This document shows positions 7,086 through 36,199 of a DNA stretch of 36,199 bases, one piece after another; positions within the stretch are counted from its first letter, which is position 1; the number at the start of each line of letters is the position of its first letter. Source of the DNA: Patescibacteria group bacterium (GTDB taxonomy: Bacteria; Patescibacteriota; Minisyncoccia; 2-02-FULL-40-12; GWA2-44-9); NCBI GenBank assembly GCA_038078535.1, contig JBBTYS010000024.1, forward strand, positions 1 to 36,199, given 5' to 3'. Position numbers and translations under genes: made by a program. The notes beneath the pieces were generated by a model that saw only the letters and a list, made by a program, of their open reading frames with translations, was not told the DNA's origin and made no database searches.

Positions 7086-7304
7086 TTATTTCGATATGAT
7101 TATTAAACCCCAGCCGATGAGCGTTACAAGAACAGCCACAGCGGCAATTATTGCGGAGCGCCATTTTTCTAAACTCGATACCCTGCCATTGGTTGCGGTG
7201 GTTTGGAGAAGAATAGCGTCTAGCTTTTCATCCTGCGCCTTTTGTCGTTCATCTATACGTACCAATAGTTCCATATCGATTTCTGCATTTACCTTCTTTG
7301 CCAT
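7086..7304 (-). CDS. Small membrane protein, holin-like candidate
   Basis: 72 aa with a charged N-terminal helix and a single C-terminal TM helix (AIIAAVAVLVTLIGWGLIII). TAATG overlap with the GH108 gene. Confidence 0.4.
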   Translation of the reverse strand: MAKKVNAEIDMELLVRIDERQKAQDEKLDAILLQTTATNGRVSSLEKWRSAIIAAVAVLVTLIGWGLIIISK

Positions 7305-17882: not shown

Positions 17883-18311
17883 TTACTGTGCCTGGTTTGT
17901 CCAAATAGTTCCTTTTATGGTGGCTGCCATTGTGCCTGCCCCCGTCCATGTAATTCTATAATACCTCACCGGACTTCCAGTGAACTGCCATATACCGCCT
18001 TGAGTGGCAACATCGGTAGCAGTAAATGTGGTGGACGATATAGAGGCATAGTCTACCCCGTCATTGCTTCCATGAATGGCAATAGTGCCGGCCACTAGAC
18101 CCGATATTTTAGTGGCTATAAATTGAACGGATGATACATTTCCGCTTTCGAGGGATGCATCAACCTGAACAAATCCTGTTGCTGTATTGGTTACAGTATC
18201 TGACACCAAAAGAGTTGATCCTAAGGCGTTGTAAAAGTTTCTTGCCTTTTGAGCTTGCCCGCTAAATGCAATGCATGTGGCAAGCATTATTGAAATGAAT
18301 ATTTTTTTCAT
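17883..18311 (-). CDS. Small protein with a signal-peptide-like N-terminus
   Basis: 142 aa. N-terminus MKKIFISIMLATCIAFSGQAQ. The start lies 30 nt downstream of palindrome copy 1. Confidence 0.55.
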   Translation of the reverse strand: MKKIFISIMLATCIAFSGQAQKARNFYNALGSTLLVSDTVTNTATGFVQVDASLESGNVSSVQFIATKISGLVAGTIAIHGSNDGVDYASISSTTFTATDVATQGGIWQFTGSPVRYYRITWTGAGTMAATIKGTIWTNQAQ

Positions 18312-18340: not shown

Positions 18341-18364
18341 GGAGACGCAAAATTTTGCGTCTCC
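18341..18364. repeat. Palindromic element, copy 1 (perfect 24-bp palindrome; terminator-like on the minus strand)
   Basis: ggagacgcaaaattttgcgtctcc. On the minus strand it is followed by ATTTTTCC. It lies between the 204-aa gene stop (18384) and the next start (18311). Confidence 0.8.
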
Positions 18365-18383
18365 CTGCATTTTTTTTCTCGGT

Positions 18384-18998
18384 TTATCTGGCCCCTCTCA
18401 ACTTCGTGCGGGTGCCCTTTAAGTGCAACTCCACAAAGTGATGGTTTACCACAGCTTCCAACACTTTGTCGATAGGAAACTTAATGGAGAACTGCATGGG
18501 CACGTTTTGCTTCAGCAATCGTGGATAGGTAAGCTGATAACCGTTCTGGCCTTCAAACTCATCGGTGTTGGCAGCTTGCTTTAACAACTGCTTGATGGGC
18601 AAGGTGAGGATAGGCGTATCGTTTTGCTTGATGACCAGGTTGGCGTGAAGCAACTGGATAGGACAGGCGGAGATAAGAGACGAGTAGGACACATCAACAG
18701 CAACGGAGTTGTTGGCAACTGCCGAACTTCCATAACCAAACTGAACAGCATCAATGATGAAGTTCACAAACTTTGGCAAGGTGCGCTTGTCGATGTTGGT
18801 AATACCTACGCTCTCGTCAAGCGCAGCCGTTAATAAGTCGATCTCGCCACCTCCCACGATTTTTGTCCGCACATAAAGGGGCTCGTCTTCAAGCACAATT
18901 TTCCTGTCTTTGATAGCACCGCGTGTTTCGCTATCCAATTCTGCAGCCCCGTAATTTTCGAGGTAAGCCAGTTCTCTCGATTTCAATGGTTTTCTCAT
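18384..18998 (-). CDS. Hypothetical protein; candidate abundant structural (coat) protein, by context only
   Basis: 204 aa, beta-rich. It is the only late gene followed by a strong hairpin plus T-run. Confidence 0.45.
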   Translation of the reverse strand: MRKPLKSRELAYLENYGAAELDSETRGAIKDRKIVLEDEPLYVRTKIVGGGEIDLLTAALDESVGITNIDKRTLPKFVNFIIDAVQFGYGSSAVANNSVAVDVSYSSLISACPIQLLHANLVIKQNDTPILTLPIKQLLKQAANTDEFEGQNGYQLTYPRLLKQNVPMQFSIKFPIDKVLEAVVNHHFVELHLKGTRTKLRGAR

Positions 18999-19053
18999 GA
19001 TTGATAATTTTTTTAAGTGGTTTAAATTTTTTTCTTTTTCCCAGAGGGAAGGA

Positions 19054-19524
19054 TTACATGACGCTCTCTAATCCCAAGAGTTTGTTTTCCAAATTCTCGC
19101 CAAGGCCGGTGAGTTCGTCCAATGCGTCATTGGTTTCCATCCCATCTTCGTTGCCTTCACCAAGAAGTTTTTCATTCAAGTTCTCTACATCGCCAAGCCA
19201 TCCCATTGCAGGGGCTGCACCTGTGGCAAGCTGAGGTATGAATTTGTTGATGGTACCTTTGAAGCCGGTGATGGCAGGTACTCCGTTGTCGGCAGCAATA
19301 CTGTTCATTACTGCAATAGTGCCTAACGAGGCCGATACGATAGAGGCAGATTTGAATACCTTACCTCCAACCATGATGCCGATAAGACCGGCACCGAGCA
19401 ATACCCAACCTGAATATTTGGGCATTTTACGGGCAACGTGCAGACTTACGACTGCCACGCCTGTACCAAGCGCTAAGTCAACTGCACCGTCCTGTAAATT
19501 TTTTGTGATCTCTTTTACGTCCAT
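19054..19524 (-). CDS. Membrane protein (Gly/Ala-rich helices)
   Basis: 156 aa. Hydrophobic segments LALGTGVAVVSLHV, GWVLLGAGLIGIMVGG and ASIVSASLGTIAVM. Confidence 0.55.
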   Translation of the reverse strand: MDVKEITKNLQDGAVDLALGTGVAVVSLHVARKMPKYSGWVLLGAGLIGIMVGGKVFKSASIVSASLGTIAVMNSIAADNGVPAITGFKGTINKFIPQLATGAAPAMGWLGDVENLNEKLLGEGNEDGMETNDALDELTGLGENLENKLLGLESVM

Positions 19525-19546
19525 TTTTTTGAAAGTTTAATTGGTT

Positions 19547-22369
19547 TTAAATAGTTATAGCCATCACCTTTTTGGTGCGTTGACTCGATTTGGATTTGGA
19601 TTTTTTACCATTAGCCTTTACTCCGGCTAGGGCAGGAGCAGCCACTTGTGCAGGTGCCGCTTGCGCTATCTGTGCTGGCGCTGCTTTGCTACCGCGAAGC
19701 GCAAAGGCCAACAGACCTACGCCAACAGCCACACTTGCAGCAATGGCGATGTACTTCACCGTGTTGCTCTTTTGCTCGTTTAGCATTTTGGTTTCCACCA
19801 CTTCCGCTTCCTGTATGGGCAGTGTTACAATGCGGCCTTCTTCGTTTTGCACAGGCACAATGCCTGGCTTAGTGAATTGCTCTACCGCTGATGGCGAGGC
19901 ATTGTTTTGAACCAGGGTTTCGGCAACCTGCATTGCTGTGGGCGCCACTTCCTCAATGGCTGCTGATATTTCTTTGGCCAGTATGGGGTTCTCTTGCGCG
20001 ATAGACTTTGAGGCTATCTCGGTGGCAACCGGATTGTTTTTCATGGCCGATACCAACGGTGCCGCTTGTGGGTTGGCCTTTAATAGTGCAGCCGCTATTG
20101 TGGGCGACTTAGCGTTGATTATCTGAGAAGCGATGGATGATAATTTGGGATTACTGGTAAGCACTTTGGCCAGCGTGGCAACAGCGGGGTTTGATTGCGC
20201 CATCGCGTTTGTTACACTTGATGTAAGTTTTGATACCAATGGGTTTGAACCGGCAACTTTTGGTATAAGTGATTGCAGTATGCTTGTTGGAGCAAATGAA
20301 TTTATGATATTAGATATGGGTAATGGTGTTACATTTGGGTCGCCCTCATCGTCAATGTCGTCAGTGCTTTCGGCTGTTACTGATGCGCTTTTTATTTCGG
20401 CATCACTTGCATGAGGTGAACTTGCACGGCCTTTGAACATGGTAGTGAAGTTGATAGGCTTCAACAGCGCGGCAATAGCTGCCAACACGCCCGCTGCGGC
20501 TGTGGTTGAAACAGGATCGCCTAATGAAGCTTTTGTGATCGCTATCTTTTTGCCGGCTTCCACGGCATCGCGCAGTTGCTGTGTGGTGCCTCCTTTACTT
20601 ACCACCAGCTTCTCTACTACTTTTGCACGGTCCAGTAGTTTTTTATATTCTACAGTGTTATAGGTAGATGCTTCGCTCACTGGCTTATAGGCCAGGCTTA
20701 ATTTTGTGGCAAGGCCATTTTGGTTTTTGCGGATGGCCTGAAGCAGCTCTTCTAACTCCGATGCATCCTGCGTGCGTATCAATGCACTGTACTCAATCGG
20801 TTTCAACTGAGCGTCTACCAGTTGCAGCAACGGCAGCGCAGGGCTTATTTGTTTTTTGATAGCCGCGATTTGTTTGCTCTGTGATGTGGTCTTGGCTTTT
20901 ACTGCCTGCGCTTTCTTTGAAGCGTTGCCACGATCACCTAACCCATCGAACCCATTGAACCCACTGATGAGGTTGTGTTTTTTTGTACCATGTGCCCAGC
21001 CTGCTTTAACAGCGGCATCAAATTTTTCAACCTTGCCGCCAATGGCTTTGTGTAATTTGCGGGTCTTCTCCAGTGTGACCTGGTTCTTTCTCCACTCCAC
21101 AATGTCCAATCCTTTTTCCTGCGCCTGGGCTTCCGTCCAATAACCATATCCAAGCTTTTCGGCCATGCGAAAAAGGTTGAGCTTCATGGCCAGCAACAGC
21201 CCGTTGCGTATGGCTATGGTAGCGGGGTTGTAGCGCACTATCACTTTGGCCACTACTTTGGCGGCCTGCACTATGGCTGCACCAGCGGCCTTTACTCCGC
21301 TGCCTACCTTTGAGGCCACTGACTTAATACCTTTGGCTATTTTTTTAAAGAAGCCTTTACCAAGGCCAAAGCCACTAAGTCCGTTTAGCTCTTCGCGCTC
21401 TTCCAGGCAGGCCAGTTCGTTAAGGACTTTTGAACGGGTGTTGCCATCGTCAAACACGGCAATGAGCGAATCGAGCCTTTGGGCGAAAACAGCAGGGTTA
21501 TAAATGCCTGCCGTAAGTGCAGGGTTGATGGCAAGTATTGCACGGGTGTTGACCAGGTGCTGCTTAAGGCCAAGCAAAAAAGCAGTTTGCACCTGCCTGG
21601 GGCTTTCACCATTAAATCCGTTGAGGCCGTTAAATTCGTTTCCAAATATGCCAAGCAATTCTTCTGCTGAAGAAGGGGCTGGGTATGCCAGTAACGAAAA
21701 AGCCTGTGGCGTAATGCCGCCAGTGATCGTTGACTGATCAAGTCCATTGAGATATTGTATTTTCATAACCTTATCAAATTTTTTGAGGGGTTCTACTTCG
21801 TGATCGAACTTATCCACCACGCAATCCATGACGTAGTATTTATTGCGGGCTACTTCTTTGGCGGTAAAATCAGTGATGGGTACACCTTTCTTTGGCACCA
21901 CCACATACACATGCTGCCAGCCTGTGCTTTCGTTATATGCCGCCTTTCTAAGGGCATGGCTAATTTTTTGGTGGTGTAAATAGGAAGAGAGCAACACGCT
22001 CATACAATCGCAGTCGATACCTCTTTTGCGATCCAGCCAACTGCGGCCTGGCCTGCGTATCTGCTCAATGCCGTTGGCATCTTTTGCATATTGAAAGTGA
22101 TTGTAGACGTGGTTCCAATCATTGCGCAGTGTTTCTTCCAGGGTGCGGCCTTGCAGTGTTGGCGCTACCTTTTCGGTATCTTCCAAGGTGTTGAGCACGA
22201 TCTTAGCCATGTGGTTAAGCGTATCGTAGGTGTCGCTTGCCTCGCCTCCTATGATGGGGTTTGTGCCCAATAGAAATTCTTTGTTGTACAGGCTGTCGTA
22301 TTCGGTGCCAGGGCGGATGTTACGCCTGCCCGATGCCACAAGTCCAAGTCCGATCAATGCTCTTCTCAT
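19547..22369 (-). CDS. Large protein with an N-terminal transglutaminase/papain-like Cys-His-Asp core, an Ala-rich helical body and a C-terminal TM helix
   Basis: 940 aa. Candidate triad: GIDCDCMSVLLSSYL (Cys), GWQHVYVVV (His), YYVMDCV (Asp). The centre is long and Ala/Lys-rich. The C-terminus has YIAIAASVAVGVGLLAFAL followed by a basic tail. Confidence 0.6.
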   Translation of the reverse strand: MRRALIGLGLVASGRRNIRPGTEYDSLYNKEFLLGTNPIIGGEASDTYDTLNHMAKIVLNTLEDTEKVAPTLQGRTLEETLRNDWNHVYNHFQYAKDANGIEQIRRPGRSWLDRKRGIDCDCMSVLLSSYLHHQKISHALRKAAYNESTGWQHVYVVVPKKGVPITDFTAKEVARNKYYVMDCVVDKFDHEVEPLKKFDKVMKIQYLNGLDQSTITGGITPQAFSLLAYPAPSSAEELLGIFGNEFNGLNGFNGESPRQVQTAFLLGLKQHLVNTRAILAINPALTAGIYNPAVFAQRLDSLIAVFDDGNTRSKVLNELACLEEREELNGLSGFGLGKGFFKKIAKGIKSVASKVGSGVKAAGAAIVQAAKVVAKVIVRYNPATIAIRNGLLLAMKLNLFRMAEKLGYGYWTEAQAQEKGLDIVEWRKNQVTLEKTRKLHKAIGGKVEKFDAAVKAGWAHGTKKHNLISGFNGFDGLGDRGNASKKAQAVKAKTTSQSKQIAAIKKQISPALPLLQLVDAQLKPIEYSALIRTQDASELEELLQAIRKNQNGLATKLSLAYKPVSEASTYNTVEYKKLLDRAKVVEKLVVSKGGTTQQLRDAVEAGKKIAITKASLGDPVSTTAAAGVLAAIAALLKPINFTTMFKGRASSPHASDAEIKSASVTAESTDDIDDEGDPNVTPLPISNIINSFAPTSILQSLIPKVAGSNPLVSKLTSSVTNAMAQSNPAVATLAKVLTSNPKLSSIASQIINAKSPTIAAALLKANPQAAPLVSAMKNNPVATEIASKSIAQENPILAKEISAAIEEVAPTAMQVAETLVQNNASPSAVEQFTKPGIVPVQNEEGRIVTLPIQEAEVVETKMLNEQKSNTVKYIAIAASVAVGVGLLAFALRGSKAAPAQIAQAAPAQVAAPALAGVKANGKKSKSKSSQRTKKVMAITI

Positions 22370-22947
22370 TTTTTTATGAAAATGTTTTGGTCTCTGACAC
22401 CGATTGACTTAAGCCACATGGGCACGTAAAAACCTGGGCAGTCTTTTTTGGCGAACTGGTTATGCCCAGCGCCTTTTATTTCTGGATGATAAGTGATGAT
22501 TTGATTTACCCATGCTTCCATTGTGGCACGCTGCGCGGGTGTGCGTGTATCTTTCGAGGCGGTGCCATCTTTGGTAAGGCCACCGGCATACACCAGGTGA
22601 CGGCCAATTGAATTGGTGCCAGTTGCACCGTTGCTGATCTCGCGTGGGTCTACATTGTCGTCTTCATCGTAAGGGATAAGATTGACGAGCGATCCATCTA
22701 ACAGGATCATATCAGAATATCCAACTTTGCTCCAACCGCGACCGCTTAGTTTTTTTACATCTACTCCGCCTATCTTTTCATCGGGGAGATCCAGAATACT
22801 TTCGTAGGGGGTTGACTTGTAGATTACGCTGCCATCGGCATTGACAAGCGGCCCCATGTGCCACTGGCGAATTTCATCAGGGGTAACGGGGCGACCTTCC
22901 GGTGTGGCGGTGCAATGGATGATGAATAATTGCAACTTTTGTGACAT
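22366..22947 (-). CDS. N-acetylmuramoyl-L-alanine amidase (Amidase_2 / T7-lysozyme-like)
   Basis: 193 aa from the ATG at 22947 (the track start at 22959 is TTG). Motifs IIHCTATPEG and GWSKVGYSDMILLDGS. ATGA overlap with the 940-aa gene. Confidence 0.75.
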   Translation of the reverse strand: MSQKLQLFIIHCTATPEGRPVTPDEIRQWHMGPLVNADGSVIYKSTPYESILDLPDEKIGGVDVKKLSGRGWSKVGYSDMILLDGSLVNLIPYDEDDNVDPREISNGATGTNSIGRHLVYAGGLTKDGTASKDTRTPAQRATMEAWVNQIITYHPEIKGAGHNQFAKKDCPGFYVPMWLKSIGVRDQNIFIKK

Positions 22948-23102
22948 GATCGCTGCCAAGATGTGCAGCGATGGAATGGGGCAAGTCCGCTTTAGTCCAC
23001 TATTGACCTTTTACTACCAATAGTTGGCAAAAGTTTCCTATTTTTACAGGTAGTATTCGGGGAATCAGTTACGAAGTGTTTTGATAACGTTAACTGATTG
23101 AT

Positions 23103-23288
23103 ATGACCATTTTAAACTACCCCGTTAAAAGAAATGCACTTGCCCAGGTGTATAAGATCAACACAAAATCACTTCGTGAAAGGTTAAGGGAGATTGGGAT
23201 TGATCACGGCCACACGCTTTCACCAAAGGAGATAAAGAGAATAATTTCTAACTATGATTTGCCTGATGGGGTGGAGATAAAATTGTAG
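23103..23288 (+). CDS. Small HTH-like protein on the opposite strand
   Basis: 61 aa, ATG start. LAQVYKINTKSLRERLREIGI looks helix-turn-helix-like. Its 3' end overlaps the convergent DUF1643-like gene by 37 nt. Confidence 0.45.
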   Translation: MTILNYPVKRNALAQVYKINTKSLRERLREIGIDHGHTLSPKEIKRIISNYDLPDGVEIKL

Positions 23289-23758
23289 GCTACTGGTTTA
23301 ACATCACCCTTCACGTACAACGGATGCCGTGGGCTGCCGTCTTTATTGATCACCAAGGCTTTCGCGTGAGGAAACATTCCTTTCAATTCAACATCCCTGC
23401 CTAGTTCTTTCACAACATCAAAAGCACCCCACGCAAATATTATATCCTTACTCATACGGGCAACTTCGTACAACCAATGGTCATTAGTTGCTGTGTTACC
23501 AAAGTCTTTCAGATCATCGGGATTGGTGGATACATACGGGAAGCAATTGGTCATATACACACCTCCATAACCCCAACTTTTGGCGAAGCCGATTACCCTG
23601 GTAATGGTAGGATCAGGTTCCGTCTCGTTTGCTGTGGATGGATTAAGCCCTATGAACATTACTTTAGGTTTGCTATCATCCCAAATTCTCCACAACACAT
23701 AGCGGTACTTTCTGCAAGGGCTAAAGGTTGCTCCGTTATCGTCAAATAAATCTTTCAT
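23252..23758 (-). CDS. DUF1643-family protein
   Basis: 168 aa from the ATG at 23758. The family-typical pattern is RKYRYVLWRIW...MFIGLNPSTANETEPDPTI...PRHPLY. Confidence 0.65.
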   Translation of the reverse strand: MKDLFDDNGATFSPCRKYRYVLWRIWDDSKPKVMFIGLNPSTANETEPDPTITRVIGFAKSWGYGGVYMTNCFPYVSTNPDDLKDFGNTATNDHWLYEVARMSKDIIFAWGAFDVVKELGRDVELKGMFPHAKALVINKDGSPRHPLYVKGDVKPVAYNFISTPSGKS

Positions 23759-24018
23759 CAAACGGGTTCACTTTCATTTTTAAATTCGTAAGTCCATTCA
23801 TCTGTTTCTTCGCTTAGGTATGCTTCTGCTTTTTCCTTCCACTTCACAAGTTCATTCTTAAGTTCGTCTGTTACCGGAACATTAATACCAGCACCAAACA
23901 TGCCTTCCTTGTAGCCGCAGTAAGGGCACCAATACTCGCAGTATGGATGACGGAACGTCCATATCAGCGGCACTTGCCTTTCGTGGCTTCTGCAAATTTT
24001 AATTGATTCGTTGCTCAT
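23758..24018 (-). CDS. Small Cys-rich (zinc-ribbon-like) protein
   Basis: 86 aa with CRSH...CEYWCPYCG. Confidence 0.45.
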   Translation of the reverse strand: MSNESIKICRSHERQVPLIWTFRHPYCEYWCPYCGYKEGMFGAGINVPVTDELKNELVKWKEKAEAYLSEETDEWTYEFKNESEPV

Positions 24019-24679
24019 AATTTATTTTAGGTTGCGCTCTTTCAAGAGCAATGTGTTTTTGAAATCGTTTTTCCTGATTCGCAAAATGTGTTGGGTCTAT
24101 CTCCAAGCCCACAAAGTCAAAACTCATATCCCATGCGGCTATGCGATGGCTACCACTGCCCAGGTGAGTGTCGAGAATGTTATCACCTGGTTTGGCGTAT
24201 TCTTTCAACAGCCACTTGTATAGTAACACTGGCTTTTGTGTGGGGTGTATGCGTGGCTCGTTCAGTTTCTTATTGCCTTGCATGATGTGGCCTTCGCCTA
24301 TGCTCTTTCCGTGCATCATGCCATTCCACATAAAGCGAAACATGCGTGTGCTATCGTGAAAGCTGCAATAAGCTAATTCGCAATCGCTGAAATCGGTGTT
24401 ACCGTTTACTTTATCCCACACAATGCGGCCTGAACCAAACTGGTATTGGTAATAGTTACATCCCCAAATAATCTGGTTTTCAGATACGCGAAATAGCTGA
24501 TCAAAATATTCTTTGTCGGGCACTTGCCATGTGTCTGTTATTGGATACTCATCGCGAGACACACCCGTAACAGAAACTTTGTTGCCGTAAAATGGTCGCT
24601 TCTCATGGCCGGAGTAATACGGAGGATCGACAATGGCAATTTTGTATTGCTTGTCTTTCATGCTGCGCAAGTGATCCAT
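23999..24679 (-). CDS. DNA methyltransferase, beta-class N6A/N4C (N6_N4_Mtase type)
   Basis: 226 aa. The catalytic motif IVDPPY is near the N-terminus. HPTQKPVLLYKWLL and the AdoMet motif ILDTHLGSGS are near the C-terminus. Confidence 0.85.
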   Translation of the reverse strand: MDHLRSMKDKQYKIAIVDPPYYSGHEKRPFYGNKVSVTGVSRDEYPITDTWQVPDKEYFDQLFRVSENQIIWGCNYYQYQFGSGRIVWDKVNGNTDFSDCELAYCSFHDSTRMFRFMWNGMMHGKSIGEGHIMQGNKKLNEPRIHPTQKPVLLYKWLLKEYAKPGDNILDTHLGSGSHRIAAWDMSFDFVGLEIDPTHFANQEKRFQKHIALERAQPKINYEQRIN

Positions 24680-24722
24680 GCAGTTGGCCCAAATGTGCTA
24701 CGGAGAAAGCCATCTTTATTTT

Positions 24723-24953
24723 TTACCATCGCCCAATCGGGCATTTTGTTTCTTTAATCTTAGTTTGCTCTTCCATATTGATTCCATTGCAATGCCCATC
24801 CTTTAAGCCATACTTTCCACCGTCTGGTTTTAAGGTGTGAGGGCACAACAGACAATCGGCAAAACGGAGATCGCTGTCAAAATCTGAATTGACTTTATCG
24901 TCAATATTAAATCGAGATTTTAAAAGCGAGTTGATTCTTATAGGTTCACTCAT
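24723..24953 (-). CDS. Hypothetical small Cys-containing protein
   Basis: 76 aa, with ATGA coupling to the upstream 98-aa ORF. Confidence 0.4.
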   Translation of the reverse strand: MSEPIRINSLLKSRFNIDDKVNSDFDSDLRFADCLLCPHTLKPDGGKYGLKDGHCNGINMEEQTKIKETKCPIGRW

Positions 24954-25246
24954 GTAAACTCGTAGTATTCATTATCACCTTTAATCGTTGTTTCAAACGG
25001 GAACTTGTTCTTAGGCACAAGCTTAATCATGTCCATCATCACCTTTGATCCGGTGAATACAATTCGCTTTTCACCTCCTTTTTCAATTTGAAGTGTTAGT
25101 AATTCAGTTCCTGCTTTCTTATTCGATGGCGTTATCTTATAGTCAAATACGGTGATGGGCAGGTTGAATAGCTTTTGTATCGCTATTTTTTCGCCAACAA
25201 AGGAATTGATATTAGGCTGAATGTTGAAGTCTTTGAAGTTGTTCAT
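24950..25246 (-). CDS. 98-aa protein translationally coupled to the DGR RT (possible non-Avd accessory factor)
   Basis: Its ATG (25244-25246) overlaps the RT stop (25243-25245) as CAATGAAC. The sequence is MNNFKDFNIQPN...RIVFTGSKVMMDMIK...; it looks beta-rich and basic, not a four-helix bundle. Confidence 0.55.
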   Translation of the reverse strand: MNNFKDFNIQPNINSFVGEKIAIQKLFNLPITVFDYKITPSNKKAGTELLTLQIEKGGEKRIVFTGSKVMMDMIKLVPKNKFPFETTIKGDNEYYEFT

Positions 25247-26193
25247 TGCGCTAGTAGTTTTTTGGTCAAGTGCCTGGCATTGCAGTGGCCGAGCCAACCG
25301 AGATAGGAAGCTTTAGACGGATGATTGGGATTCTTACTCAGCTTACGTGCGAAATTCTTTTTAATTGATTTGCGGATCATCACATGCGTATGCCGAAATA
25401 CATAACCGACAAAGTCTATTCCCCTTACATCCACCGGAAAGACCTGGTGAGTTTGTTTCACTTCAAGTTTAAGGTCGTGCAGGTATGCTTTTGCCTCATT
25501 CATCAATGTGTGAAGTCTCGACTTATCTGAATCGAGAATCACAATATCATCGGCATAACGGTAGTAGTATTTAACCCGCTTTTCTTCTTTGATCCAATGG
25601 TCGAAATATGACAAGTAAAAATTCGCCAGGTATTGACTCAGGTAGTTGCCAATTGGCAAACCGGGGGCACTGTCAATGATCTCGTCAAGTAACCATAGCA
25701 GGTCTGGGTCTTTAAATTTCTTTCTGAGCAAGGCGTTAAGTACATCGTGGTCGATGCTTGGGTAGTATTTCTTTATGTCAAACTTGAGGCAATATTGCGT
25801 TCCTGAAATGTCTTTTAAATCGGCATTCAATTTTTGCAGTAGTAAGTGAATACCTCTTTTCTTAATGCAACTGTATGTATCAGCAGTGAATGAACTGACA
25901 AAGATTGGCTCCAGCACATTCATGATTGCATGGTGAGTGATGCGATCAGGAAAGTAGGGCAACCGATAAACTACTCTCTCCTTTGGTTCATAGATGTTGA
26001 AGATGTCGTATTCGGATGTACGATAGGTCTTGCTCACAAGCAGGTCTTGTAGCACGAGAAGATTTCCTTCTTTATTTTGGTTGTGTAGCGTTACACCGTA
26101 TTGAGTAGATTTTCCTTGCTGCGCCTTCCGGTCTGCCTCCTGAAGGTTTGCAAGGCTTGTGATCCGCTCGTAGATGTTACCAATTCTTTTCAT
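25243..26193 (-). CDS. DGR-type reverse transcriptase
   Basis: 316 aa. RT motif 5 is YYRYADDIVIL. The motif-4 variant LPIGNYLSQYLANFYL ((I/L)GxxxSQ) is typical of DGR RTs. The adenine-rich TR lies 122 nt upstream. Confidence 0.9.
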   Translation of the reverse strand: MKRIGNIYERITSLANLQEADRKAQQGKSTQYGVTLHNQNKEGNLLVLQDLLVSKTYRTSEYDIFNIYEPKERVVYRLPYFPDRITHHAIMNVLEPIFVSSFTADTYSCIKKRGIHLLLQKLNADLKDISGTQYCLKFDIKKYYPSIDHDVLNALLRKKFKDPDLLWLLDEIIDSAPGLPIGNYLSQYLANFYLSYFDHWIKEEKRVKYYYRYADDIVILDSDKSRLHTLMNEAKAYLHDLKLEVKQTHQVFPVDVRGIDFVGYVFRHTHVMIRKSIKKNFARKLSKNPNHPSKASYLGWLGHCNARHLTKKLLAQ

Positions 26194-26315
26194 TTTGTTT
26201 TATGCTTTGCTTTTCATAAGTCGCCTTCTCCCGAAACTTCGGGATACCAACGCCTCAGATTTTGATCCGTGTTTTTTTGCCAAGAGGCAAGGTCTGCGAC
26301 AGTTTCTAATACCTC

Positions 26316-26392
26316 AGCATAGGTGAGAGCTGACATTCGAATTCGTATTCCAATTATCGTAGTCGTTATACTGGAACCCGGACGAAGCCACT
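26316..26392 (-). repeat. DGR template repeat (TR), 77 nt
   Basis: Minus strand: AGTGGCTTCGTCCGGGTTCCAGTATAACGACTACGATAATTGGAATACGAATTCGAATGTCAGCTCTCACCTATGCT. It has 20 adenines, and all differences from the three VRs fall on these adenines. It is intergenic between target 1 and the RT. Confidence 0.9.
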
Positions 26393-26418
26393 CAACCATC
26401 GCACAACCTGTTTTTCAT

Positions 26419-26817
26419 TTAAAGCATGTATTCTTTACACACCTTCAGATAATTCTTATTGTCTTCACACATCCACTTCATTACATCGTAATTTTTAAAG
26501 CAAAGGCGAGAGCCGACAAGCGAATCCGCACGCCAAGCACCGTAGCCGACACACTGGAACCCGGACGAAGCCACTATAAAGCGTGGCTCATACTTCCAGT
26601 CGGTGTTGTTATAGTCAGGCTTCCACGGCTTACCATCATTGGCCAATCTGTTAGCTGCCTTCACCATAATAACAACCTTGGATTGTGCTATCTGAGATTT
26701 TCTATCCTTCTTTGGAAACAGAGCCGCTAACTGGATTGACGCTGCAACTATCTTCTTAGCATCAAGCCCTTCAAGCTTGCATGCCTTTTCAAATGTTAAT
26801 TGTTTGATCTCTTTCAT
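26419..26817 (-). CDS. DGR target protein 1 (small paralog family)
   Basis: 132 aa. ...WKYEPRFIVASSGF-QCVGYGAWRADSLVGSRLCF-KNYDVMKWM...; the VR encodes about residues 81-107. No signal peptide. Confidence 0.8.
   Translation of the reverse strand: MKEIKQLTFEKACKLEGLDAKKIVAASIQLAALFPKKDRKSQIAQSKVVIMVKAANRLANDGKPWKPDYNNTDWKYEPRFIVASSGFQCVGYGAWRADSLVGSRLCFKNYDVMKWMCEDNKNYLKVCKEYML
26499..26575 (-). repeat. DGR variable repeat VR1
   Basis: 77 nt, ungapped against the TR, with 16 substitutions, all at TR adenines. Confidence 0.9.
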
Positions 26818-26824
26818 TTGGTTT

Positions 26825-27290
26825 TTATTTTTGAATAGTCATGAATAGTTTAAACACGTTCATAAATTCGGGTTGCTCAATGGCATGTAGTCCAAGCCTC
26901 TTTTCCATAAAGCAAAGGCGAGAGCCGACATCCGAAGCCGTAAACCAAGCAGCGCAGCCGAGACAGGAACCCGGACGAAGCCATGAGAAAGTAGAGAGTG
27001 AACTTAGGCGCTGTTGAATCCCAGTCTGGTTCTCGCTTTTCATTGAGGGCTCTGATGATCAATACAGTCAACTGATAGTTTACAACGTGGCAAGTTGCGT
27101 CAAACAGGGTGAGAAGTTTCTTGTAAATGATCACCTCTTCATCCTCTTCTCCAAGTTCGCGTAGAACATCTAGTATAGTTTTGATTTTGGTTACATCCTT
27201 TGGCTTCGCTTTGAGCGTGTACGCGCCAGATGCTTTGTCGAAGGTGTCTATCTCTTGCCCTTCGGGGATTTTAAGTTGCGGTGTTTTCAT
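26825..27290 (-). pseudogene. DGR target paralog 2, frameshifted inside its VR
   Basis: The N-terminal frame (27290 down to 26877) reaches ..LMASSGF. A 2-nt gap relative to the TR (AG after GGGTTCC) moves the conserved tail ..CLGCAAWFTASDVGSRLCFMEK.. into the frame of ORF 26825-27043. Confidence 0.7.
26911..26983 (-). repeat. DGR variable repeat VR2 (with a 2-nt deletion)
   Basis: 73 nt aligning to TR positions 3-77 with one 2-nt gap. 16 substitutions, all at TR adenines. Confidence 0.85.
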
Positions 27291-27292
27291 GT

Positions 27293-27697
27293 TTATTTGA
27301 TTATGATTAGTTGCTCATACCACTTTGTGAATTTTCTACCTGCATGAATAGCCAATGAGCTATCTTTTAAGCAAAGGCGAGAGCCGACACCCGAAAGCGC
27401 AAGCCAACCACCGAAGACGTAATACCGGAACCCGGACGAAGCCACAATAAAGCGTGGCTCATACTTCCACTGATTGTGGTTTTTATGGTCGGCAATCCAT
27501 CCTTGATTGAGGGATTTGATCAGCAACTTCAAAAACCTGAATGCCACCTCATCTTCTGGCAAGCCTTCGCATTGTTTGTTAAATTTATCTTGCGTGAGGC
27601 CATTGTCTTTCAACACATCTTCATCGGTGTTGATTCGATTCATTACTTGTTCTGTTGTTTCCATATTGTTTTGTTTTGGGTTTAATTTGATTTTCAT
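27293..27697 (-). CDS. DGR target protein 3 (small paralog family)
   Basis: 134 aa (an alternative ATG at 27664 gives METTEQ...). ..WKYEPRFIVASSGF-RYYVFGGWLALSGVGSRLCL-KDSSLAIHAGRKF.. Confidence 0.8.
   Translation of the reverse strand: MKIKLNPKQNNMETTEQVMNRINTDEDVLKDNGLTQDKFNKQCEGLPEDEVAFRFLKLLIKSLNQGWIADHKNHNQWKYEPRFIVASSGFRYYVFGGWLALSGVGSRLCLKDSSLAIHAGRKFTKWYEQLIIIK
27370..27446 (-). repeat. DGR variable repeat VR3
   Basis: 77 nt, ungapped against the TR, with 18 substitutions, all at TR adenines. Confidence 0.9.
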
Positions 27698-27723
27698 GGC
27701 TACTTAACTTTTTATAGTTTGTT

Positions 27724-29331
27724 TTATCTTAAAGTGTCTACACATCTTTCTACCAGCAATTCCATTGCAGGCGGGGTTACGGCATTGCCGCATTGTTTTA
27801 CTTGTTCTTTGGCATTACCCAGCACGATGTAATCGGCATCAAAGCCCATCCCTATTTTTACTTCGTGCTTCAGCAACATGCGGTAATAGCAATCATCTAT
27901 TTTGGGTTTCGCTCCCAACATTACCAGGCTTGCCCGATCTTTTGTGGTAAGGGTTCGTACTGGCTCGTTTACATCACTTGCTTGTGTGCCACCATAGTAG
28001 TAACTGAGAAAGCTCTTTAGCGATTTGTCGGTGACTATACCATTCTTAATAAAGCCTGCGGTAATGGTGCTGAGTGGCTTTGTGGCCAGCCTTGCTTTGC
28101 CTGTGCGGTGCAGGTCTACAATCAATGGAGGCATTACTACTCCGTTGGTTGCTCTGGTTGTTTGCGTAAAGGCTACCTCACTTGCAGCATCGCGTATTTT
28201 ATTTCTTCCGTTGCTATACTCTCCATTGGTGACAAGTGGAGAGAGTATGTGAAAACCGTTGTCAGTAAGTTGAGTTGGCAATGGGTCTTTAACACTGTCT
28301 TTTACCAATGAGCCAGGCAAAGTATTATGATTGCGTTTAACGATGATCGGGTTAAGTATGCCATAGCTTTGATCTCCTGGCTGAGTGGGCAATACCTCCT
28401 GTGTGGCATCCTTCACGCGGCAACTAATGCCAGATGTGTAGCGTGTGGTAATAATCTGGGGCTTGTTCCAATATTTTTCTATGCCGTATTGAATGCGCTT
28501 GACTGTATTTTCACTCAACGGCTTTTTGCGATCTCCTATGCGAGTGCCCGGTATGCTCCAATCAATGCAGTTGAATGCAGCATAGTAATATGGCTCAACC
28601 AGGTGGTTGCATGTAGGGCATTTGAAGACGTATTGTTGCTTATACTTGCCCCATTGCTTTTCGGTGGTCTTCCAGGCTTGATAGGTTTCGGTTTCTTTTG
28701 CACAATGTTGACAAAACCCACGTGGGCGTATGTTCAGGTCAGGAGCGGGATTGCCCTTCTTCCAGAACACCACGTACATTCTATCGCGGCTTTGGGGTGT
28801 AGGGTGTGCATGTTGTGAGTTGAGATAAACGCATTTGTGATTGTAGCCAAGCAGGTGCATGGCTTTCAACCAGGCATCCCACATTACCCAATACCTGGCA
28901 TCCACAACGTTCTCCACAATGATGAATGCGTATTGATGAAACTCTGCAAAGCGGGGCACATCCCACATGGTGGCTCTGGATCTCTCGTCAGTGTGATCAA
29001 TCGTGGCACGGCCAAACATTTCTATTTGTTGCTGCCACTTGCGTTTGATGCCTTTAGCCAGGGAGTGATTGGTACACTCAGGCGATGTGATGAGAAAGGT
29101 AGAGCTTGCATACCTGCGGGGGTCACAGGCAGATATATCTGTGCAGTCGTGATCGGTATCGGGGAAGTTGGTATTGTGCGTTTCAATGGCAAGCTTCCAG
29201 TGGTTGAGTGCGAGCTTTACGCGGATGCCGCTGTTGCCTGGCTTCCTGGAAAGGTTTCTTACTCCCTGGCTACTTCCACCCGCTCCGCAAAACTGATCGG
29301 TAACGGTGATGTCTGAGTCTATTCTTTTCAT
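27724..29331 (-). CDS. DNA (cytosine-5) methyltransferase
   Basis: 535 aa from the ATG at 29331. Motif I DQFCGAGGSS, motif IV-like ITSPECTNHS, motif VI IIVENV, motif X QCGNAVTPP. It has a long variable region. The track start at 29352 lies inside palindrome copy 2. Confidence 0.85.
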   Translation of the reverse strand: MKRIDSDITVTDQFCGAGGSSQGVRNLSRKPGNSGIRVKLALNHWKLAIETHNTNFPDTDHDCTDISACDPRRYASSTFLITSPECTNHSLAKGIKRKWQQQIEMFGRATIDHTDERSRATMWDVPRFAEFHQYAFIIVENVVDARYWVMWDAWLKAMHLLGYNHKCVYLNSQHAHPTPQSRDRMYVVFWKKGNPAPDLNIRPRGFCQHCAKETETYQAWKTTEKQWGKYKQQYVFKCPTCNHLVEPYYYAAFNCIDWSIPGTRIGDRKKPLSENTVKRIQYGIEKYWNKPQIITTRYTSGISCRVKDATQEVLPTQPGDQSYGILNPIIVKRNHNTLPGSLVKDSVKDPLPTQLTDNGFHILSPLVTNGEYSNGRNKIRDAASEVAFTQTTRATNGVVMPPLIVDLHRTGKARLATKPLSTITAGFIKNGIVTDKSLKSFLSYYYGGTQASDVNEPVRTLTTKDRASLVMLGAKPKIDDCYYRMLLKHEVKIGMGFDADYIVLGNAKEQVKQCGNAVTPPAMELLVERCVDTLR

Positions 29332-29341
29332 AGTTAGGTTG

Positions 29342-29361
29342 AGACGCAACATTTTGCGTCT
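29342..29361. repeat. Palindromic element, copy 2
   Basis: agacgcaa-catt-ttgcgtct, 10 nt upstream of the C5-MTase ATG. The flanks ggtt(t)gagacgcaacattttgcgtctttac are shared with copy 4. Confidence 0.75.
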
Positions 29362-29484
29362 TTACATTAAGTGGATTATGAAATTGATAAGTGCATAGCA
29401 ATTCTTACAACCTTGCGAAACTTTGTCACAGCCTGTTACAGGGTTCCAGGTGTAGTCTGTCCACTCGATAGTTGTCTTGTTCAT
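29362..29484 (-). pseudogene. Truncated N-terminal remnant of a DUF5131 (phage Gp37/Gp68) gene
   Basis: 40 codons: [31 protein letters not shown], then LINFIIHLM-stop. As I recall it, this family is normally about 250 aa. The reading frame ends exactly at palindrome copy 2. Confidence 0.6.
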
Positions 29485-29930
29485 ATAGTTGATTGTATGA
29501 GTGGAGACGCAAAATTTTGTGTCTTTACGCTTTTCATGTCTAGTAGATAAACATCGATCATGTCTACAATTTCCTGTTGCCATACTATCCACACGGTAGG
29601 CCGCTGGTAGGCTTGCTCTTTAAAGAACTGAAAGAAAACCTTGCTATCATTAAAGCCATCGGTGGTAGCAAACCAATGCTGAATAACTGGTACGAGCGAC
29701 ACGCCATCTAAAATGATTTGATGCTTTTTGTAGTTTACTTTGATCGGGTACACCTTCACACACTTGTACTCTACATGCTTGTGGCATTGCTTTGTGCGCA
29801 TACCAGTAAACATTTTTAGTATATCACCTTCGCGTATTGGCCGCTTGCGGTTTACCTGGCGCACGGTGCCTAGCTTGGTGCCATTGACCACGCTGAAGAT
29901 GAATTGCTTTTTGAAGTTGACGGCTGGCAT
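29481..29930 (-). CDS. ASCH-domain-like protein
   Basis: 149 aa. The N-terminal pattern [20 protein letters not shown]...REGDIL resembles ASCH (K..TIR ... GD). The C-terminal tail VKTQNFAS is encoded by the palindrome. Confidence 0.45.
29505..29524. repeat. Palindromic element, copy 3
   Basis: agacgcaaaattttgtgtct (one G-T wobble). It lies 20 nt upstream of the ATG at 29484, inside the 3' end of the ASCH-like CDS. Confidence 0.75.
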
Positions 29931-29931
29931 T

Positions 29932-30153
29932 TTATTTTGGTGTGATTTGTCTAAGAATCAGATTGTCGTTATCGTCAAAAGTGAAGCAGTCGGGGCAGTA
30001 GTGTTTATCATCATCTGTTTCATGCCAACCACTCTCTGTGGCTATCTCGCGGGCATAATCCGAATCATTCCAAGCTGAATATTCTTCTCCTTCGCAAACA
30101 TCTTTGCCGCAGTTGTCGCATACCACGGTGTACATTTCTACTTTCTTTATCAT
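29932..30153 (-). CDS. Small zinc-ribbon protein
   Basis: 73 aa with CDNCGKDVC ... CPDCF. Confidence 0.5.
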   Translation of the reverse strand: MIKKVEMYTVVCDNCGKDVCEGEEYSAWNDSDYAREIATESGWHETDDDKHYCPDCFTFDDNDNLILRQITPK

Positions 30154-30395
30154 AGCGGTATTACTTCTCTGGTTTTAGGTAAGTCAAACTTCCGTCCGCT
30201 CATGGTGCGGGCGAGTATTGTTGGTGTGAAAATGGGATCGCCTTTCGCATCGTGCTGCACGTAGTGGGCACCGTTCTCACCATGCGGACCATTCTGCACG
30301 GCAAGCAAAACGCTGGAATCGCGTAGCTTCAAAAACCTTCTGCGTTTGCCTGGCAGTTTAAAGAGTTGCCCTGTTAATAGTTCTCCGGCTGTCAT
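30150..30395 (-). CDS. Hypothetical protein
   Basis: 81 aa from the ATG at 30395 (MTAGELL...). ATGA overlaps on both sides. Confidence 0.4.
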   Translation of the reverse strand: MTAGELLTGQLFKLPGKRRRFLKLRDSSVLLAVQNGPHGENGAHYVQHDAKGDPIFTPTILARTMSGRKFDLPKTREVIPL

Positions 30396-30535
30396 AGCAA
30401 TCCAAGTTTTGAGAGCCCAAAAACAAATGCGTAAAACAAGCCAACCGCTACCAGGCCGGAGCCTACGGATATGCACACTAGATCCAGATAGAAATTGTTG
30501 CGAAGTGTTTTGCGCAGGTAGTAGAACCTTGTCAT
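30392..30535 (-). CDS. 47-aa membrane micro-protein (below the ORF-track cutoff)
   Basis: Hand translation: MTRFYYLRKTLRNNFYLDLVCISVGSGLVAVGLFYAFVFGLSKLGLL. Both its start and its stop overlap neighbours as ATGA. Confidence 0.4.
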   Translation of the reverse strand: MTRFYYLRKTLRNNFYLDLVCISVGSGLVAVGLFYAFVFGLSKLGLL

Positions 30536-30708
30536 AGCTTGCGGTGGTTAAAGCCTTTCTTTTCTGAATTGGTGATCACCTCAGTAAGGGTGTAACCCAT
30601 TTCTGGCCGGCCAGATTTAAGCACCATATTGTTCATCACCACAATGGTGAAGGAGATGATCCGTGTTCCTTCCTCTTTGTCGAAATAGTGGATGTCTACG
30701 TGTGGCAT
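30532..30708 (-). CDS. Hypothetical protein
   Basis: 58 aa from the ATG at 30708 (MPHVDIHYFDKEEG...), 2 nt after the upstream stop. Confidence 0.4.
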   Translation of the reverse strand: MPHVDIHYFDKEEGTRIISFTIVVMNNMVLKSGRPEMGYTLTEVITNSEKKGFNHRKL

Positions 30709-30710
30709 AC

Positions 30711-31013
30711 TTATTTCCGGTTGATTAGCCATTGATAACCATTTTCTAGTTTTTTCAAATCCGCCTCCTGGTTCAGTGGCAGTGTGATGTCTTTTGTTAC
30801 CTGCCTGTTCATTAGCCATCGATAATCCTTTTCTAGTTTTCCTAAATCCGCCTCCTGGTTTAGTGGCAGTGTGAGTTGAGTTTCCTTTTTGATCTTGCGG
30901 TCGCGCCTGTTGATTTTCTTAAACAGGTTGTCTTTTGCAACCTGCCGTTGCGCTTCATTGCTGAAGATGTTTGGCAAACTGATAATCACTTTGAGAAGTT
31001 GTATTGATCTCAT
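30711..31013 (-). CDS. Hypothetical protein with a 29-aa tandem repeat
   Basis: 100 aa from the ATG at 31013 (ATGA overlap). The repeat is TLPLNQEADL(G/K)KLE(K/N)(D/G)Y(R/Q)WL(M/I)NR, present twice. Confidence 0.45.
   Translation of the reverse strand: MRSIQLLKVIISLPNIFSNEAQRQVAKDNLFKKINRRDRKIKKETQLTLPLNQEADLGKLEKDYRWLMNRQVTKDITLPLNQEADLKKLENGYQWLINRK
30724..30875. repeat. 87-bp-period tandem duplication (two units of about 65 bp, about 88% identical)
   Basis: attagccattgataacc...cagtggcagtgtga at 30724-30788, and attagccatcgataatc...tagtggcagtgtga at 30811-30875. Confidence 0.8.
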
Positions 31014-31342
31014 GCTCCCATCATTTGTGGTGGACAAAAACTACCTAGCTCGAATAAAATCTGGTTGCCTTCTTTGGTTTCGCCTACACGCTGAAGAACA
31101 TCTACTAGTAACACTGCATGAACAGCATCGAACTTTACCTTCAAAACCTTGCGGCCTTCCTGCAACATGCCATCGTGCCGTTTGCGAAGTGATTCATAGA
31201 ATTTCTTCACCAATGCGCACCGATAGAATTCCTCGCGGTTGATGTCTCTGCGGTTGGCCACACCCAGCCAATAGATGAACAGCGTGGAGAGAAATCCATC
31301 CAGGTCGTGGTAATCCATCGGTATGGTTTTCACGGCTTTCAT
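31010..31342 (-). CDS. Hypothetical protein
   Basis: 110 aa from the ATG at 31342 (MKAVKTIPMDYHDL...). The longer track ORF starts inside palindrome copy 4. Confidence 0.45.
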   Translation of the reverse strand: MKAVKTIPMDYHDLDGFLSTLFIYWLGVANRRDINREEFYRCALVKKFYESLRKRHDGMLQEGRKVLKVKFDAVHAVLLVDVLQRVGETKEGNQILFELGSFCPPQMMGA

Positions 31343-31440
31343 TTGCGGTCGTCTCCGTTGATAATCATTATCATCACATACATGATGTAACCAATGCAGG
31401 CAACCGAAACGCAAACGAGTAGTGTTATCAGTGCTTTCAT
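31339..31440 (-). CDS. 33-aa membrane micro-protein (below the ORF-track cutoff)
   Basis: Hand translation: MKALITLLVCVSVACIGYIMYVMIMIINGDDRK. ATGA overlaps at both ends. The start is 17 nt downstream of palindrome copy 4. Confidence 0.4.
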   Translation of the reverse strand: MKALITLLVCVSVACIGYIMYVMIMIINGDDRK

Positions 31441-31625
31441 TTTGATTGGATGGTTTGAGACGCAACATTTTGCGTCTTTACTGAGTACAACTGCACCTGC
31501 ACTTTGTTAAGCTCGTCATGCTTGCGCCAGAAATCATCGCTGTCACGGTCGCCCTTGCGTATAAAAGCGTGTATTTCCTTCTGGATCTCGCGCTCTTGCT
31601 GTCTGAGTTTGGATTTGTCGGTCAT
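31437..31625 (-). CDS. Hypothetical small charged protein
   Basis: 62 aa, ATGA coupled on both sides. Confidence 0.45.
   Translation of the reverse strand: MTDKSKLRQQEREIQKEIHAFIRKGDRDSDDFWRKHDELNKVQVQLYSVKTQNVASQTIQSK
31458..31477. repeat. Palindromic element, copy 4
   Basis: agacgcaa-catt-ttgcgtct, inside the 3' end of CDS 31437-31625 (it encodes VKTQNVAS). Confidence 0.75.
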
Positions 31626-32804: not shown

Positions 32805-33080
32805 CTAAATTGAGAGGACTCTTGTAGACCGGGGGTTGCGGCTCGGTTTTTTAAATTGCCCCTTGCTGATTGTCTCCATATCGTTCAGGCACTTCTTCAG
32901 GTGCAGGGCTTCTTTGATCAGCTTCTGTGTTTCGCGCTGCATGGCAATGATGGTTTGCTTACGCACCTCGAGATCTTGCTTCATGCCGTCTATGCTGGCC
33001 TGAAGTATCGGATCGCTCATACCAGTGTGGACTCTTGGGTTCGCTGGTCGCTCATACCAGTGTGGGGTTCTTTCGCTCAT
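32805..33080 (-). CDS. Hypothetical coiled-coil protein
   Basis: 91 aa, with ATGA overlap to the upstream gene. The 5' end lies within a triple direct repeat. Confidence 0.45.
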   Translation of the reverse strand: MSERTPHWYERPANPRVHTGMSDPILQASIDGMKQDLEVRKQTIIAMQRETQKLIKEALHLKKCLNDMETISKGQFKKPSRNPRSTRVLSI

Positions 33081-33280
33081 ACCAGTGAGGGGTTATAGGT
33101 GGCATCGTGCATTTGGTGCTTCACTATGTCTACTATGCGTGTGGTCTCCAGCATCTTCAACTGTGCCTTGCGGCTGATGTGTATGTCGTGGTTGCGAAAT
33201 GCCTGGCTTACATAGGTGTGGCGCTCCACTTCGCGTTGTAGTTGCAGCAACAGATCCAGACAGGTTTGCGGGGCTTTCAT
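33077..33280 (-). CDS. Hypothetical protein
   Basis: 67 aa, ATGA overlaps. Confidence 0.4.
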   Translation of the reverse strand: MKAPQTCLDLLLQLQREVERHTYVSQAFRNHDIHISRKAQLKMLETTRIVDIVKHQMHDATYNPSLV

Positions 33281-36144: not shown

Positions 36145-36189
36145 CTCATAATCTGAGGGTCGCTGGATCGTTCCCAGCAGGGCCCACTT
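36145..36189. repeat. attR core: second copy of the 45-bp repeat (displaced tRNA 3' fragment)
   Basis: Perfect match to 11-55. The sequence upstream of 36145 has no tRNA 5' half, so this is a fragment and not a second tRNA. Confidence 0.9.
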
Positions 36190-36199
36190 CTTTAAAGTA

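Follow-up and report, generated by a model that had tools for sequence, protein, structure and literature searches.

The DNA analysed here is a 36,199-nt contig (JBBTYS010000024.1, referred to in its entirety as the window) that carries a prophage and in which a short palindrome, able to form a hairpin, occurs four times. Comparison with other genomes makes it reasonably probable, in our judgement, that all four belong to a widespread family of GTAG-tagged mini-hairpins of the repetitive extragenic palindrome (REP) type, which were mobilised or imported into the prophage and have side effects at the gene junctions where they now lie.

The pattern GAGACGCAAMATTTTGYGTCT matched the window at 18342-18362, 29341-29361, 29504-29524 and 31457-31477, reading alike on both strands as expected for a palindrome. 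As the initial annotation had claimed, each copy is followed, after a short gap of 9-29 nt, by a start codon on the minus strand, the minus-strand ends of copies 1 to 4 being 29, 9, 19 and 16 nt ahead of the ATGs at 18311, 29331, 29484 and 31440 respectively. Copy 1 (18341-18364) is a perfect 24-nt palindrome, GGAGACGCAAAATTTTGCGTCTCC, which begins 19 nt past the stop codon of a gene for a 204-aa protein and is followed by AUUUUUCC. Copy 2 (29338-29365) reads GTAA-AGACGCAAAATGTTGCGTCT-CAAC on the minus strand, copy 3 (29501-29528) reads GTAA-AGACACAAAATTTTGCGTCT-CCAC and has one mismatch in its stem, and copy 4 (31454-31481) repeats copy 2, the two being 100% identical across 27 nt including their flanks, much as had been noted at the outset. 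The placement of copies 3 and 4 inside the 3' ends of upstream coding sequences was also borne out, as they form, in frame, part of the final 14-16 codons of open reading frames (ORFs) of 149 and 62 aa, and the GTAA foot of copy 2 contains the TAA stop codon of the ORF upstream. The ATGs that follow copies 3 and 4 open little of substance: that at 29484 starts a 40-aa remnant gene, and that at 31440 only a 33-aa hydrophobic ORF (31339-31440, minus strand) beginning 16 nt after the hairpin. The feet are GTAA..C(A/C)AC for copies 2-4 and AGGG/..CCAT for copy 1, with GTAG on none of the four. No fifth or decayed copy was found in the window when up to 5 mismatches were tolerated. In 100 dinucleotide-preserving shuffles of the window the pattern was never matched (chance expectation zero), in agreement with the early suggestion that copies at gene junctions are not random, and as the identical sequence was present in independent assemblies, from three replicate samples and from an NCBI metagenome-assembled genome (MAG), chance or assembly artefact can for practical purposes be set aside as their origin.

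The first indication that the palindrome belongs to something larger than this prophage came from its distribution. When IMG/VR was scanned for the exact 20-mer, 11 contigs were recovered; their flanks are unrelated, and in most of them the palindrome is longer, GTAGAGACGCAAAATTTTGCGTCTCTAC. With the loop left free, the core AGACGCAA-N4-TTGCGTCT was found at no fewer than 120 loci in a set of one genome per species, spread over many phyla (Bacteroidota, Chloroflexota, Planctomycetota, Patescibacteria, Cyanobacteria, Desulfobacterota, Acidobacteriota and others) and including Bacteroidota isolates of the genera Hymenobacter, Spirosoma, Mucilaginibacter, Pontibacter, Fibrella and Cytophaga. The family consensus is GTAG-AGACGCAA-N4-TTGCGTCT-CTAC. 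Over 152 sites the four letters of the foot were conserved at 77-86% each (G117/T117/A119/G131), the tail was CTAC, and the flanks beyond were random. Inverted doublets were common, with the units tens to hundreds of bases apart and framed as GTAG-unit...unit-CTAC, whereas the copies in the window are singletons. Counted genome-wide, a Bacteroidales MAG had 89 copies, an Anaerolineales MAG 47, a Melioribacteraceae MAG 25 and a Saprospiraceae MAG 17, and a reversed control pattern gave none. A Saprospiraceae MAG also has GTAA/CAAC and GTGG/TTAC variants of the foot, which the GTAA feet of copies 2-4 match. Given this spread, the presence of the hairpin says little about the identity of a host. 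A literature search by the exact hairpin sequence returned chance primer matches only and no paper giving the sequence.

Some members of the family were arranged in more elaborate ways. Tandem arrays occurred in an IMG/VR contig (L013, 3212-3639; seven copies, of which six recur with a 42-nt period) and in an Anaerolineales MAG (L035, 2896-3107; five copies at a 45-57-nt period); they have the look of CRISPR arrays, although their spacers are much too short for that. In Saprospiraceae MAGs (L224, L229 and L117) the 3' half of some units is repeated in tandem two or three times after the unit (..GTCTCAATATTTTGCGTCTCAATATTTTG..), as if by slippage or abortive copying.

Short dispersed palindromes with a GTAG foot are the published signature of REPs, the elements that REP-associated tyrosine transposases (RAYTs) bind and cut; REPs also often supply stop codons and can sit inside ORFs (PMC3733652). 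A gene of this kind was found beside the hairpin. In a Dysgonomonadaceae MAG (L025) doublets of precisely this hairpin stand on either side of a Y1 transposase-like gene, and in a second locus (L113) a homologue of that gene has the hairpin inserted in frame; both were detected with a profile built from a second class of Y1 genes. The best NCBIfam match of the L025 protein was 'REP-associated tyrosine transposase' (E 1.2e-15, 57.6 bits, which is below the 80-bit cut-off of that family), and its sole PDB match was the Escherichia coli TnpA-REP structure 4ER8 (E 6e-6), with the HUH and C-terminal motifs aligned. RAYT-like homologues were present in all five carrier genomes searched, and the hairpin flanks or interrupts a RAYT-like gene at nine loci in seven genomes. 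These loci are L155, L156, L157, L160 and L161, from Melioribacteraceae, Anaerolineales and Saprospiraceae MAGs, and, among isolates, Fibrella musci (L325), Mucilaginibacter dorajii (L326) and Spirosoma fluviale (L327 and L329). The HUH and Tyr columns were invariant in the RAYT-like proteins. M. dorajii also has a paralogue (L328), and the hairpin flanking this one is related to the present hairpin yet distinct from it, as would be expected of cognate enzyme-repeat pairs. Because the same hairpin flanks this RAYT-like Y1 gene in so many settings, we conclude from these comparisons that the hairpins constitute a GTAG-tagged REP family with a RAYT clade of its own.

Y1 genes of the ordinary IS200-like kind in the carrier genomes were also considered as partners and were rejected, as they are flanked by other GTAG hairpins and not by this one. 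At L113, L156, L160 and L161 the RAYT-like gene carries its own hairpin, which is inserted in frame at a variable loop of the protein and encodes ..SRDAMHCVST... No RAYT was found on the viral contigs, by either single-protein or alignment search, and there was no match to PF01797 in the bin to which the window had been assigned (G000).

The initial annotation had pointed to related phages as the place to look for the motif. Distant relatives of this phage did not have it, but it was found in other viral contigs: the core with its loop left free gave 97 stretches in IMG/VR, of which 81, with 126 sites, were analysed. Several of these contigs hold 4-5 dispersed copies, and the GTAG foot is present at 80 of the 126 sites. 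Where they lie between co-directional genes, the viral hairpins are at a median of 11.5 nt past the stop codon and 31 nt before the next start as judged from crude gene calls, and these positions indicate that the arrangement seen in the window is typical of the family when it occurs in compact phage genomes. At gene junctions, a hairpin may be present in one phage contig and missing from a related one (80-88% identity); cases of such gain or loss are the L238 group compared with L280, a doublet in L280 compared with a single unit in L253, and L241 compared with L301.

Whether the copies in the window simply reflect a repeat of the host chromosome depends on what the host is, and here the assigned taxonomy proved to be misleading. 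The bin to which the window belongs, as one entire contig, totals 690 kb, and genomes related to that bin measure 0.4-0.9 Mb. A 45-nt direct repeat, matching the 3' portion of a tRNA whose anticodon is CAT, marks each border of the window (attL, 11-55; attR, 36145-36189, both on the plus strand), and the integrase encoded there has Bacteroidota-type arm and SAM domains. At each end, 10 nt plus the repeat make exactly one 55-mer (1-55 and 36145-36199), which we infer to be what a de Bruijn assembler leaves at a branch in the graph; a graph branched at att suggests that occupied and empty or excised forms of the site were both present in the sample. The att core occurs nowhere else in the bin, and the tRNA half was found neither in the 40 relatives of the bin nor, within 3 mismatches, in 301 Bacteroidota genomes. 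The hairpin is likewise confined to this contig in the bin, and 39 of the 40 relatives had no match, the remaining one (G001) having a single copy beside a tRNA gene and without a GTAG foot, so that a host-wide repeat of the assigned genome was rejected.

Exact-protein look-ups led to the identical prophage (0 mismatches over 16.4 kb) in a 105.5-kb contig of the NCBI MAG GCA_964357085.1, and it was present also in contigs of 77.8 and 69.4 kb from the 0.1-µm fraction of Hainich groundwater, well H41. The host genes flanking it include two with Por_Secre_tail domains (type IX secretion system, T9SS), Fib_succ_major, Ddl, DnaG, PriA, UvrD and the ribosomal proteins S6, S18 and L9, and these flank genes are not present in the 690-kb bin. 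On the strength of the T9SS-type genes and of homologues of the 204-aa protein, which are 52-73% identical and come from Cytophagales-type Bacteroidota MAGs (Chryseolinea, Chryseotalea and Cyclobacteriaceae), the host can be placed in the Bacteroidota, probably as a Cytophagales-like member, and the window contig was very probably mis-binned. An attempt to place the host through Ddl was abandoned, as the identity to sampled genomes of the order Chitinophagales and the class Ignavibacteria was too low (46-47%). The 204-aa protein did not lead to any close relative of the prophage in IMG/VR. As for the prophage itself, PHROG families identified an endolysin (7304-8020) and an amidase (22366-22959), and no terminase, portal, capsid or tail family was found among the large ORFs tested between window positions 1503 and 22959.

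In 50,064 nt of this true host flank there was no copy of the hairpin, even at 3 mismatches. The probability of such a result is about 0.004 if the flank had the density of the prophage (4 per 36 kb) and 0.31 at the density of the richest carrier genome, and the prophage is thus richer in the hairpin than the adjacent chromosome. The initial annotation had treated a generic, host-wide REP-like repeat with no positional preference as the finding that would count against a special role. That finding was borne out by half: the motif did turn out to be of REP type, but it was absent from 50 kb of this prophage's host flank, and in phages it has a positional pattern.

How four copies might have come to lie in a prophage that has no RAYT can be pictured as follows. 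The hairpin would form on single-stranded DNA and be recognised through its foot, as we reason from IS200/IS605-type Y1 enzymes and TnpA-REP, and a RAYT of the cell, acting in trans, would set units into new places or remove them from old ones; alternatively the copies could have arrived by recombination with DNA already bearing them. Selection would then leave copies only where they do no harm, between genes and in gene tails that can be spared. Two of the three reading frames of the unit are open and its GTAA or GTAG foot provides a TAA or TAG stop in the third, which would account for both the in-frame tails at copies 3 and 4 and the stop codon donated by copy 2. Once in place, copy 1 most likely ends or stabilises a transcript, and the 27-nt identical repeats could plausibly offer micro-homology for rearrangement.

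Several observations weigh against this explanation. No Y1 or RAYT gene was found among the genes called over the 50 kb of true host flank and no further hairpin is present there, so that transposition in trans is something we infer. Three of the four copies in the window have GTAA and copy 1 has neither foot, and they may therefore not be RAYT substrates at all. REPs are classically missing from prophages and islands, which have been called 'REP deserts' (PMC3390384), and against that background four copies in a 36-kb prophage are unusual. Finally, the RNA-level role of the copies is proposed from their sequence, and the one gene truncation linked to a hairpin (that of DUF5131, below) is a single case.

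The alternative that survives best is that the hairpins are selected phage RNA elements, i.e. terminators, attenuators, processing or stabilising stem-loops or modulators of translational coupling, and that the likeness to REPs is secondary. We regard this as rather unlikely for the set as a whole, although it describes copy 1 well. The calculated RNA fold energies were -16.1 kcal/mol for copy 1, -10.4 kcal/mol for copies 2 and 4 and -5.2 kcal/mol for copy 3, with stems of 8-12 bp across the four copies and DNA folds of -2.4 to -10.6 kcal/mol. Copy 1, as the initial annotation had proposed, is terminator-like: it has a G+C-containing stem of 10-12 bp followed by a U-run, and it was scored as such on both strands. 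Copies 2-4, again as proposed there, are not followed by a U-run on the sense strand. These three are weaker RNA hairpins that sit just ahead of unstructured A/C-rich leaders. The good preservation of all four copies and the median distance of 31 nt from the next start in the viral family also speak for elements that act on RNA; however, in a genome that is 94% coding a position near a start codon is expected of anything wedged between genes. The weak fold of copy 3, the lack of a hairpin at the copy 3 junction in relatives and, above all, the fact that the same 20-28 nt bracket RAYT genes in several phyla are difficult to reconcile with an RNA element as the origin of the sequence.

The strongest case for a function in RNA comes from the slot occupied by copy 1, between the gene for the 204-aa protein (18384-18998) and that for a 142-aa protein (17883-18311), both on the minus strand. 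In two relatives, which have 72-73% identity in the 203-aa protein, the same junction holds strong stem-loops of unrelated sequence: the fold was -17.2 kcal/mol (z-score -3.9) in L322 and -19.8 kcal/mol (z-score -3.1) in L323, compared with -17.9 kcal/mol (z-score -3.4) in the window, and no hairpin of the present family was found in 20 kb of the two relatives. As the structure is kept while the sequence is replaced, there is good evidence that a stem-loop after the 204-aa gene is selected, with a REP-type unit appearing to fill the role here, and copy 1 most likely ends or stabilises the transcript of that gene. The role in RNA stability or termination that was among the first suggestions is thus supported for copy 1; for copies 2-4, which have no U-run, RNA-level effects are plausible. 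The copy 1 slot would be a clean place in which to test a REP hairpin as a terminator or stabiliser in a phage of the Bacteroidota.

A further explanation is that the hairpins are recombination cassettes resembling the PeSLs (promoter-early stem-loops) of T4-type phages, that is, short conserved junctions for the exchange of modules between phages, for which those elements provide a precedent (PMC2839356, PMC4122927). Its main attraction is the junction at copy 2. The gene of which copy 2 supplies the stop is a remnant (29362-29484, minus strand) of a DUF5131 (Gp37/Gp68-like) gene in which only the first ~31 codons are kept: it matches positions 1-30 of 243 in Pfam PF07505 and positions 2-32 of 299 in phrog_2045, and the homology stops at ..NCYA, with copy 2 beginning 26 nt further on and a block comprising a C5 cytosine DNA methylase gene (27724-29331, minus strand) and a diversity-generating retroelement (DGR) beginning thereafter. 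In relatives, homologues of the 149-aa protein (29481-29930 in the window, minus strand), 42-51% identical to it, are encoded in start-stop coupling with a complete DUF5131 gene of 340 aa; the contigs carrying the two have no hairpin of the present family, and the C-terminal tails of the homologues are unrelated to that of the window protein. The 27 nt shared by copies 2 and 4 and the hairpin-containing indels at the gene junctions of related phage contigs point in the same direction.

On the other hand, the hairpins in the window have no promoter half and leave only 9-29 nt before the next ATG, and a scan with a sigma-70 model, which does not represent Bacteroidota-type promoters, gave nothing above shuffles. 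The hairpin was absent from all 43 viral loci that carry a homologous methylase, and a cassette of hairpin plus methylase was rejected on that ground. Moreover, the window offers one rearrangement only, and we found no pair of phages that had swapped a module exactly at two hairpins. We therefore consider it improbable that the hairpins exist as exchange cassettes, while module shuffling is compatible with a REP-type origin as a side effect, the junction between the truncated DUF5131 gene and the methylase being a possible example of rearrangement through hairpin micro-homology. The earlier idea of recombination hot spots accordingly receives some encouragement from this suggestive truncation and from hairpin gain and loss in other phages, but in the window it amounts to one case.

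The genes around copies 2-4 deserve brief description. The methylase gene lies directly downstream of copy 2 as the first gene of the methylase/DGR block, and in a DNA search of a phage database it was the only part that matched. Its homologues align from residue 1-8 of the protein starting at 29331 (535 aa), whereas one gene caller began the gene at 29352, inside the loop of copy 2 (542 aa); the AATG loops of copies 2 (29350-29352) and 4 (31466-31468) include an ATG, which misleads gene callers in this way, and that of copy 4 opens a spurious 152-aa ORF. The DGR was recognised at 25243-27697, with a reverse transcriptase gene matching Pfam RVT_1, an Rfam RT-17 RNA match at 26198-26294 and four copies of a 58-77-nt repeat in paralogous small ORFs. 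Rfam gave no match at the four hairpins, the only matches in the window being the RT-17 RNA and the tRNA half. No homologues were found for the 62-aa protein (31437-31625, minus strand) whose gene ends in copy 4. A tandem 71-nt repeat (87% identical, 87-nt period; 30717-30874) lies in a 100-aa ORF (30711-31013) and gives an internally repeated protein.

The suggestion that the palindromes are operators for a dimeric phage regulator, such as one of the element's helix-turn-helix proteins, was a natural one in view of their perfect dyad symmetry and of four copies each upstream of a gene, but we now consider it very improbable and would not read the motif in this way. The sequence is dispersed through unrelated genomes of many phyla, where it flanks RAYT-like genes, and relatives of the phage are without it; within the window it is not at the divergent lysogeny-control region (34.2-34.5 kb), copies 3 and 4 lie within the ends of coding sequences, and the gap to the following ATG is too short for a promoter. 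Three 22-nt direct repeats in the early region (TCGCTCATACCAGTGTGGGGTT, 86-100% identical, 33013-33094, spaced by 35 and 25 nt) are a better iteron or operator candidate than the palindromes. Three other possibilities were dropped: the DNA uptake sequences of Neisseria and Pasteurellaceae, which differ in sequence; DGR target hairpins, since the variable repeats do not adjoin the palindromes; and restriction at a BsmBI-type site (CGTCTC), which found no support.

To return to the REP-type origin, REP and RAYT systems as such are well known; the more unexpected features are a core common to several phyla, its frequent carriage by phages without the enzyme, and four copies in one prophage. REP/RAYT systems are generally viewed as vertically inherited residents of the core chromosome. 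The occurrence of the core and its RAYT clade in several phyla, the 126 viral sites and the gain and loss of units at phage junctions sit awkwardly with a chromosome-bound picture. It is possible, if doubtful, that REP-type hairpins are commonplace in RAYT-less phages of Bacteroidota and other phyla, where they would serve as interchangeable intercistronic stem-loops and junction sequences, and that phages, as they move between hosts, may be the vehicles that keep the REP core near-identical across phyla. Were this so, it would run against the view of REP/RAYT systems as vertically inherited and prophage-avoiding.

Set beside known systems, copy 1 resembles the intrinsic (rho-independent) terminators of phage late genes in having a stem and U-run after a conserved gene, in a slot that is kept in relatives; it is the missing U-run of copies 2-4, and a sequence which is that of a dispersed repeat and not of a one-off terminator, that sets the family apart. 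The PeSLs of T4-type phages are likewise short conserved stem-loops at the borders of variable genes, tied to insertions, deletions and replacements (PMC2839356, PMC4122927), but they are composite promoter-terminator elements specific to a phage group, whereas the motif described here has no evident promoter and is common to chromosomes and to a transposase-like gene. Closer in scale are the small dispersed repeats of cyanobacteria and the palindromic elements of Rickettsia (PMC3733652), which are also very small palindromic units located between genes or in frame within them. They are of other sequence and size. To our knowledge, no cognate Y1 gene has been demonstrated for them.

The closest comparison is with the REP/REPIN-RAYT systems, or 'REPtrons', such as REP/BIME-TnpAREP of E. 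coli (4ER8) and REPIN-RAYT of Pseudomonas (PMC3733652). The present family departs from these in that its core is near letter-for-letter the same across phyla and common in phage contigs, and in that its RAYT clade scores below the NCBIfam cut-off for the named family; the copies in the window depart further, as singletons with a GTAA foot or neither foot, in a prophage without a RAYT and with none in 50 kb of flank. What the family shares with these systems is a short palindrome with a GTAG foot, tens of dispersed and mostly extragenic copies per carrier genome, inverted doublets, a foot that can serve as stop codon, in-frame intragenic copies and a hairpin that brackets a Y1/HUH transposase-like gene.

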